From IMG/VR virus record IMGVR_UViG_2541047122_000022: a DNA stretch of 6,885 nt, one strand, 5' to 3'. Within the stretch, counting starts at the first letter, position 1, and each line of letters begins with the position of its first letter. The translations under genes and the position numbers were made by a program. The notes below the pieces were generated by a model, which was not told where the DNA came from, ran no database searches, and saw only the letters and a list, made by a program, of their open reading frames with translations. The stretch is from a virus. Its lineage: Duplodnaviria > Heunggongvirae > Uroviricota > Caudoviricetes. Positions 1,247 through 1,322 of the stretch are shown one piece after another.

Positions 1247-1322
1247 ATTAGGTAATTCTAATTTTTCTTGACTTAGGTTTCTCTACGATCTAGTTTCCTT
1301 AGGAAAATCTAAGGGTTTCGAT
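1247..1322. promoter_or_regulatory. Divergent immunity control region (OR analogue): three 14-bp operator-like palindromes and a dicC promoter
   Basis: Sites TTAGGTAATTCTAA (1248-1261), TTAGGTTTCTCTAC (1273-1286) and TTAGGAAAATCTAA (1299-1312), spaced 25-26 bp start to start. dicC promoter candidate: -35 TTGACT (1268-1273), 17-nt spacer, -10 TAGTTT (1291-1296). On the minus strand, TAGAAT (rc of 1255-1260) sits 8 nt upstream of the dicA ATG. Confidence 0.5.

Follow-up and report, generated by a model that had tools for sequence, protein, structure and literature searches.

The intergenic region between the divergent genes dicA and dicC of an Escherichia coli O157:H7 prophage contains three inverted repeats that most likely constitute the OR set of a P22-type immunity region, and that together with leftward operators at the dicB-operon promoter would make up a two-state DicA-DicC switch. 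The phage repressor DicA and the Cro-like protein DicC very probably bind at these repeats. Lysogeny switches of this kind have been described before, for phage P22 and the Qin prophage of E. coli K-12, and the present one is ordinary in that respect. Its own feature is that it probably represents a distinct immunity type, with a better middle operator than that of K-12.

The DNA analysed, a stretch of 6,885 nucleotides referred to as the window, comes from a lambdoid prophage of E. coli O157:H7 that is inserted at ompW, and covers its early region. Around the sites, 1 kb of sequence agrees at 100% identity with many E. coli O157:H7 chromosomes and at 99.7% with PPompW phage records; this region is present at a coverage of at least 80% in 751 of 5426 complete E. 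coli genomes. The prophage has a size of ~44 kb with most phage functions present, and the gene order in annotated records is int, xis, exo, dicB, ydfC, repressor, cro-like, ydaT-like, replication genes, paa, hokD, Q, and head and tail genes. Its cargo includes paa, espO, nleG and espM. The two genes that border the repeats are as follows.

Positions 839-1246, minus strand: dicA-family repressor gene, 135 aa (NCBIfam DicA model).
Positions 1323-1550, plus strand: dicC, the Cro analogue, 75 aa (NCBIfam DicC model).

Both gene assignments had been proposed in a first-pass annotation of this DNA, and both proteins pass the corresponding family models. The product of 839-1246 scores 241.6 bits on NF007257 (DicA; cut-off 101), with residues 1-135 of 135 included in the match, and that of 1323-1550 scores 167.6 bits on NF007282 (DicC; cut-off 130). 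The latter also matches Pfam P22_Cro (49.7 bits, cut-off 30.2) and the P22 Cro structure 1rzs (E=6e-7). Identity to the K-12 proteins is 63% for DicA and 83% for DicC. DicA is composed of a P22 c2-like helix-turn-helix (HTH) N-terminal domain, a Pro/Gly/acidic linker and a short helical C-terminal part. Its first 69 residues match the structures of the P22 c2 DNA-binding domain (1adr, 2r1j and 3jxb) with an E value of about 1e-21, and the matches stop at residue 69. The Pfam matches (HTH_3, HTH_31 and Phage_CI_repr) all fall in the N-terminal half; Pfam found no S24 peptidase or LexA-like C-terminal domain in the 135-aa protein, and the remainder carries no Pfam domain. Directly after the dicA stop codon, an a7g6 run (825-838) forms a hypervariable homopolymer tract, the length and composition of which differ among similar prophage copies. 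On the other side, a YdaT-family ORF (1534-2085, plus strand) overlaps dicC by 17 nt and also overlaps the start of a DnaT-domain replication gene; it is intact here, with 183 aa, and the copy in the matching RefSeq record is annotated as frameshifted.

Between the two genes, the three 14-mers with starts 25 and 26 bp apart that the first-pass annotation had described are present exactly where it placed them, and their occurrence is beyond chance.

Positions 1248-1261: O1, TTAGGTAATTCTAA, equivalent of P22 OR3 and Qin Oa; exact TTAG-N6-CTAA match, 1 nt from the dicA ATG.
Positions 1273-1286: O2, TTAGGTTTCTCTAC, equivalent of P22 OR2 and Qin Om; one-mismatch match, with 7 of 8 core positions.
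Positions 1299-1312: O3, TTAGGAAAATCTAA, equivalent of P22 OR1 and Qin Oc; exact TTAG-N6-CTAA match.

Each site is an inverted repeat of the form TTAG-N6-CTAA, with O2 ending in CTAC. The divergent repressor and cro genes are thus separated by three operator-like inverted repeats whose centres are 25 and 26 bp apart, the middle one with its single deviation. Judging from homology with P22, a functional site probably comprises 18 bp, the 14-mer and 2 bp on each side. Written as an 18-mer (1297-1314), O3 is CCTTAGGAAAATCTAAGG, with perfect 6-bp arms around an A-tract centre, and is the best palindrome of the three. Its right flank is also the Shine-Dalgarno sequence of dicC, and part of the conservation of O3 therefore has another cause.

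To evaluate the repeats statistically, the test motif TTAG-N6-CTAA was taken independently, from the published K-12 operator Oc. The 6885-bp window contains three exact matches (at 714, 1248 and 1299) against 0.07 expected, a number reached by none of 200 shuffles. With one mismatch allowed, the scan of the window returns 714, 750, 1248, 1273 and 1299, and one unrelated site at 6770. When the 76-bp intergenic region was subjected to 200,000 dinucleotide-preserving shuffles, none produced at least two exact and at least three total sites. In the whole 44-kb prophage copy, the five sites flanking dicA account for all three exact matches and for two of the seven one-mismatch matches. A chance origin is ruled out by the window shuffles, the shuffles of the intergenic region and the whole-prophage scan. 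Repeats in promoter DNA as AT-rich as this might also be sites of host nucleoid proteins (H-NS/Cnu, IHF), and a CnuK9E variant with H-NS does antagonise DicA at the K-12 region (PMC3441716). Such a reading, whether chance or nucleoid protein is invoked, is nevertheless extremely improbable, as it meets not only the empty shuffles and the lack of any other exact motif in the 44-kb prophage, but also operator flanks that covary with the repressor HTH (see below) and the experimentally observed binding of DicA at the orthologous K-12 site (PMC3441716). It is effectively refuted by the shuffles, the whole-prophage scan and the HTH-flank covariation.

The relation of the sites to the two promoters is the next element of a switch of this type. 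The consensus promoter scan reported neither the dicC nor the dicA promoter, because the hexamers are weak (the dicC -10 matches 3/6 positions), and both were placed by alignment to K-12 and P22.

Positions 1268-1296, plus strand: dicC promoter (PR analogue), with -35 TTGACT at 1268-1273, a 17-bp spacer and -10 TAGTTT at 1291-1296.
Positions 1255-1260, minus strand: predicted dicA -10, TAGAAT (PRM analogue), read from the sequence.

The positions assigned earlier to the three sites are borne out for the dicC promoter and agree with the predicted dicA -10. This -10 is located within O1, which adjoins the dicA ATG. O2 takes up the spacer of the dicC promoter, the first T of the site being part of the -35 hexamer, and it also lies over the -35 region of the predicted dicA promoter; it is the weaker site. 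O3 follows just downstream of the dicC -10 and covers the start, which is predicted near 1303 by alignment to the K-12 promoter mapped by 5'RACE. On the dicA side, TAGAAT at 1260-1255 is the only plausible -10, located inside O1 and 8 nt from the ATG, and the corresponding ATTCTA is kept in O1 of nearly all homologues. The dicA promoter has no recognisable -35 and no room for a ribosome-binding site when read from the sequence. A weak, activator-dependent promoter is therefore predicted, with an mRNA that would be leaderless or have a 2-nt leader, like lambda cI mRNA from PRM. In K-12, the dicA promoter was not recognisable to Yun et al. (PMC3441716), and Reg-Seq showed no active dicA start (PMC7567609). 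An RNA-level role of the O3 palindrome was also considered and rejected; the predicted dicC start falls inside the palindrome, and for this reason the hairpin would not be transcribed whole. It is noted that seven otherwise near-identical prophage variants (L050, L054, L057, L058, L060, L067 and L080) have an A-to-G change at the equivalent of window position 1292, some of them with more changes just upstream. The substitution hits the predicted -11 A of the dicC -10 (TAGTTT to TGGTTT); such changes in resident prophages look like promoter-down mutations of the lytic promoter.

A second set of sites lies on the other side of dicA, at a promoter that the scan did report.

Positions 711-740, minus strand: leftward promoter (dicBp/PL analogue), with -35 TTGACC at 740-735, an 18-bp spacer and -10 TAAATT at 716-711.
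Positions 714-727: OL1-like operator, TTAGAATAGCCTAA; exact match, overlapping the -10 and spacer of the leftward promoter.
Positions 750-763: OL2-like operator, GTAGAAAAACCTAA; one-mismatch match, just upstream of the leftward -35.

This promoter reads into an ORF at 276-575 and then, beyond the window, into ydfC and dicB, as seen in the 100%-identical annotated O157 record. The dicB operon is thus located downstream of dicA under an operator-flanked promoter (711-763), with dicF likewise outside the window. Both sites are conserved in the homologues and are placed as OL1 and OL2 of P22, and GGTCAA is invariant in most of them. No third OL operator like those of P22 and Qin was found past 763 within one mismatch, or by eye in 764-838.

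Experimental support for the motif comes from the K-12 locus, where DicA binds Oc in an in vivo operator assay and in gel shifts with cell extracts, and where a single A-to-C change in the CTAACA of Oc leads to loss of DicA binding (PMC3441716). K-12 Oc is TTGTTAGTTATGACTAACAA, and the core TTAG-N6-CTAA is found at both outer K-12 positions. In the window, the Oc core is carried exactly by 1299-1312, which aligns with K-12 Oc just after the -10 of the dicC promoter. Repression of dicC and dicB by DicA has been demonstrated for K-12 alone (PMC3441716, PMC10448788). The K-12 repressor is also needed for dicA transcription, and the dicC start determined by 5'RACE agrees with a TTGACT/TATCTT promoter with a 17-bp spacer (PMC3441716). 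The other two K-12 sites, Om and Oa, were recognised by sequence alone, and neither was bound by DicA when cloned singly (PMC3441716). Since Oa is not bound alone, the outer core alone is insufficient, and O1 and O2 of the window may be weak or neighbour-dependent. The failure of Oa and Om to bind alone is compatible with helper-dependent binding as well as with non-function. The boundaries of Oa and Om used here were read from the K-12 sequence. The operator arrangement of Qin goes back to Bejar et al. 1986/1988, as cited in PMC10448788 and PMC3441716; the former, citing Bejar et al., gives the dicA-dicC and dicA-dicBp regions three operators each, like lambda PR and PL. Upon DicA overproduction in K-12, the activity of the dicA promoter drops from 73 to 36, for which Yun et al. 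offer another explanation (PMC3441716); we suggest that the drop is consistent with an OR3-like role of O1. As to the bistable CI/Cro-type switch suggested for the window, bistability of the DicA/DicC pair has been shown genetically for K-12 Qin, where it is DicC-dependent (PMC10448788), and by analogy it may be expected here.

To examine conservation, 11 DicA-encoding loci from other species, 80 from viral contigs and 4 from cultured phages were compared. Wherever the repressor has an AHVTISQWE-type recognition helix, O1 and O3 are found 49-51 bp apart, the former 1-2 nt from the repressor ATG and the latter immediately ahead of the cro-like gene. The outer sites are kept in E. coli, E. ruysiae, E. 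albertii, Citrobacter, Buttiauxella, Enterobacter, Pantoea, Erwinia and a Stenotrophomonas phage, and also in Yersinia, which has a near variant of the recognition helix. The prediction that motif and spacing are conserved in related prophages is therefore borne out for the outer sites in all TTAG-type homologues, whereas the middle site is full only in the immunity group of the window (group A; 20 distinct but closely related intergenic sequences, Pantoea and Erwinia included). Within this group, the varying columns number 2/24 in the operator arms, 6/18 in the operator centres, 6/11 in the promoter hexamers and 17/23 in the remaining intergenic sequence. At O2, all 8 arm positions are invariant and 2 centre positions vary. 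Outside group A, the O2 position is occupied by a half-site or variant: TTAG is kept in group B with a conserved GC block as right half, almost nothing is left in K-12, and the Stenotrophomonas phage BUCT708 has a symmetric TTCG..CGAA, the CGAA arm of which recurs in its OL2. In the second DicA group (L006-L010 and L099), the middle position, equivalent to window 1273-1289, is TTAG(G/A)TATCCCG(C/T)GC. Here a good half-site on the left precedes a GC block which different genera share and which does not form an operator arm.

This distribution allows another reading, in which the switch is bipartite, with O3 and O1 as the working operators and O2 as a decayed remnant of a P22-type OR2, conserved by ancestry and by its overlap with the promoter. 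The TTAG left half or nothing at the O2 position outside group A would fit such decay, as would the failure of DicA to bind K-12 Om (PMC3441716), the -35 hexamer claims the first T of O2, and the close relationship of the group-A sequences limits the weight of O2 invariance. It is harder to reconcile a remnant with eight of eight invariant arm positions, in Pantoea and Erwinia as well, where the centre and spacers vary. The deviation of O2 (GTAG on the other strand) is moreover used at OL2 and in O3 of some relatives, and the Stenotrophomonas phage has kept a symmetric site in this place with an arm that it uses again in OL2. P22 OR2, at the equivalent position, is a working operator. We consider the bipartite reading doubtful, and retain O2 as the probable middle operator of a three-site OR set.

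The sequences flanking the core provide good indirect evidence that the sites are what the repressor reads. In the group of the window, helix 2 of the repressor is SQAALGK and is paired with CTAAG flanks; helix 2 of the form TQR(E/S/A) is paired with CTAACA in K-12, group B, E. ruysiae, E. albertii, Buttiauxella, Citrobacter, Yersinia and the Stenotrophomonas phage. Neither the recognition helix nor the TTAG core changes between the two flank classes. Cultured temperate phages whose short DicA-type repressors have a different HTH keep the layout with other half-sites, namely TTGAG..CTCAA in HannyBb (L096) and CTAAC..GTTAG in phiES15 (L098). Such covariation is classic for the divergence of lambdoid immunities.

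Whether neighbouring sites cooperate is a separate question. We infer that DicA binds in this prophage, and likewise the ranking of the site affinities, any cooperativity of adjacent dimers and the position of the dicA start; cooperativity is put forward with particular caution because DicA has no CI/LexA-type C-terminal domain and K-12 Om and Oa are not bound alone (PMC3441716). The three sites could instead be bound independently, without CI-like cooperativity, their even spacing being inherited from a P22-like ancestor. This is possible, if on balance unlikely. DicA is devoid of the C-terminal oligomerisation domain of CI and c2, and binding of the 933W repressor to adjacent sites is reportedly non-cooperative (PMC3317979). 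For lambdoid or three-operator repressors, namely 933W (PMC3317979) and phi11 (PMC3991615), binding reportedly is not cooperative or does not extend to all three sites, unlike lambda. On the other hand, K-12 Oa, despite its perfect core, and Om remain unbound alone, as expected of sites that need a helper (PMC3441716), and the linker and conserved helical C-terminal part of DicA could mediate contacts; neither point is decisive. The opposite proposal, that O2 is a genuine third operator in group A and that DicA fills O3 and O2 cooperatively via its small helical C-terminal part, is likewise tentative, and we would not favour it at present. If true, a cooperativity module that evolved independently of the CI/c2/LexA domain would be driving a P22-type tripartite switch, the K-12 Qin locus, the sole copy studied, would be a degenerate two-site version of it, and a simple specificity rule for DicA-type immunities would follow from the way helix 2 is paired with the base that adjoins the 14-mer.

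For the three-site switch with its leftward operators, the following mechanism is proposed. DicA dimers would read ~18-bp inverted repeats built from (C)TTAG(R) half-sites, with about four bp in the middle left uncontacted, through the N-terminal helix-turn-helix that is homologous to that of P22 c2. With DicA on O3, and probably on O2, dicC and the replication genes behind it would be shut off, and the same occupancy would support dicA transcription, as is required in K-12. DicC, or an excess of DicA, at O1 would block the dicA promoter, as O1 covers the dicA -10 and start. DicA at OL1 and OL2 would repress the leftward dicB-operon promoter. The dicC-off and dicA-off occupancies would therefore correspond to two mutually exclusive stable states.

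The DicA/DicC locus has been viewed as P22- or lambda-like, with three operators, since 1986-88, and its bistability was reported in 2023 by Ragunathan and Vanderpool (PMC10448788). Our literature search found no paper on the operators of this O157 prophage itself. The exact operator coordinates for a widespread prophage are of practical value, with little gain in basic understanding. Operator-flank specificity among DicA-type repressors is of at least two kinds, following helix 2, and no member of the family has a weaker middle operator than the K-12 model locus. The half-sites of HannyBb, phiES15 and BUCT708 are useful material for a specificity code of these repressors.

Some observations were made on the right part of the window, away from the switch. 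The segment 5176-5934 (plus strand) encodes a 252-aa secreted protein with a solute-binding fold, which the matching O157 record annotates as the AcfC-family adhesin Paa. The gene is virulence-associated cargo between the replication genes and hokD, located just after a frameshifted fimbrial pseudogene. It is followed by a hok/sok type I toxin-antitoxin locus (6123-6272 and 6213-6425, both plus strand); the Rfam sok match reaches 103.9 bits, with a gathering score of 59, and overlaps the start of a 70-aa Hok/Gef-family ORF (mok/hokD frame). Collinearity of the window with both the PPompW phage and an O157 chromosome extends up to 6520, with a junction at 6521-6570 (compare L095 12353-12783). 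The gene rem, which follows gef/hokD in PPompW, is skipped, and collinearity resumes at the next gene (6592-6870, phrog_1212). Searches with K-12 Rem and PPompW Rem (tblastn) returned no rem homologue in the window. About 3058 E. coli genomes have the hokD junction without rem, which makes it a common arrangement.

The locus was compared with lambda, P22 and K-12 Qin, and with short prophage repressors under antirepressor control. For the window, P22 and K-12, the comparison was anchored manually on CAT, TTGACT and the -10, as a three-way MAFFT alignment misaligned the right half. The resulting layouts are given below.

Window: CAT a TTAGGTAATTCTAA tttttc TTGACT TAGGTTTCTCTAC gatc TAGTTT cc TTAGGAAAATCTAA ggg
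P22: CAT a gTTAAGTCATCTTAAat aaac TTGACT AAAGATTCCTTTAGt a GATAAT TTAAGTGTTCTTTAAt
K-12 Qin: CAT ag TTAGCTAATGCTAA atcgta TTGACT atgtttttgttaacatc TATCTT g TTAGTTATGACTAA caa ... ATG(dicC)

The first-pass annotation had likened the sites to the tripartite OR switch of lambda. Its three-site layout stands; the closest model is P22 immC, however, and a full middle site is restricted to the immunity group of the window. The likeness to lambda OR consists of the divergent repressor and cro genes, three operators at ~24-bp spacing that overlap the lytic promoter and, here, the predicted repressor promoter, a putatively weak repressor promoter of the leaderless type and the bistable logic (PMC10448788). 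In contrast, the DNA-binding domains and operators are unrelated in sequence to those of lambda, and the CI C-terminal domain is absent here. The operators are also ~10 bp nearer the repressor ATG than in lambda (O2 at about -33 and O3 at about -59, versus -42 and -66), so that class II activation from the middle site as in lambda is not simply transferable. The predicted activation geometry is more like that of P22 than that of lambda.

In P22, immC reportedly contains OR1, OR2 and OR3 between c2 and cro, with OL in addition, as described by Poteete et al. in 1980. OR3 adjoins the c2 ATG, the PR spacer accommodates OR2, and OR1 covers the -10 and start; the order OR3, -35, OR2, -10, OR1 is matched position for position in the window, with centres 25 and 23 bp apart in P22 and 25 and 26 bp apart in the window. 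Close homology links the DicA N-terminal domain to the DNA-binding domain of c2, DicC is a member of the P22 Cro family, the OL1/-35/OL2 layout is alike, and the symmetry of the window sites fits an 18-bp unit. The half-sites differ, (C)TTAG(R) in the window versus ATTTAAG in P22 (ATTTAAG-N4-CTTAAAT), as do the recognition helices, AHVTISQWER in DicA versus SNVAISQWER in c2. The locus is best described as P22 architecture with a different operator specificity. In both lambda CI and P22 c2, the C-terminal domain mediates cooperativity. DicA has a 65-aa linker and helical tail where c2 has a LexA-like C-terminal domain of ~140 aa; in the absence of a LexA-like domain, neither RecA-stimulated self-cleavage nor a known cooperativity module is expected for DicA (see also PMC10448788). 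The P22 repressor recognises 18-bp sites, leaves the central 4 bp uncontacted and binds best to A-tract centres (PMC4267663). By this preference O3, with the form CCTTAGG-AAAA-TCTAAGG, should be the strongest site, in agreement with the binding of DicA to Oc in K-12.

The Qin (Kim) cryptic prophage of K-12 is the nearest relative studied. DicA (63%) and DicC (83%) are orthologous, the core TTAG-N6-CTAA is common to both loci, and the outer sites are placed alike with respect to the ATG of dicA and the promoter of dicC, O1 and O3 being 51 bp apart in the window and 50 bp in K-12. Both loci have a second operator set at the dicB-operon promoter, and in both the repressor is a short, non-cleavable protein of one family. 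Small, SOS-insensitive repressors without a cleavage domain, controlled by antirepressors, are likewise found in the Gifsy GfoR/GfhR and Qin DicA-Rem systems, from which the window differs in having no rem. In Qin, DicA is relieved by the antirepressor Rem and not by RecA, and induction involves Rem together with DicC-dependent switching (PMC10448788); the rem gene is present in Qin and in PPompW phages and missing from the window. The window belongs to a prophage of ~44 kb with most functions, whereas Qin is a small remnant, and the middle site, a near-complete operator in the window, is barely recognisable in Qin. Finally, the outer flanks are TGTTAG..CTAACA in Qin and CCTTAG..CTAAGG in the window, and helix 2 of DicA differs as well. 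The two prophages are therefore probably heteroimmune.
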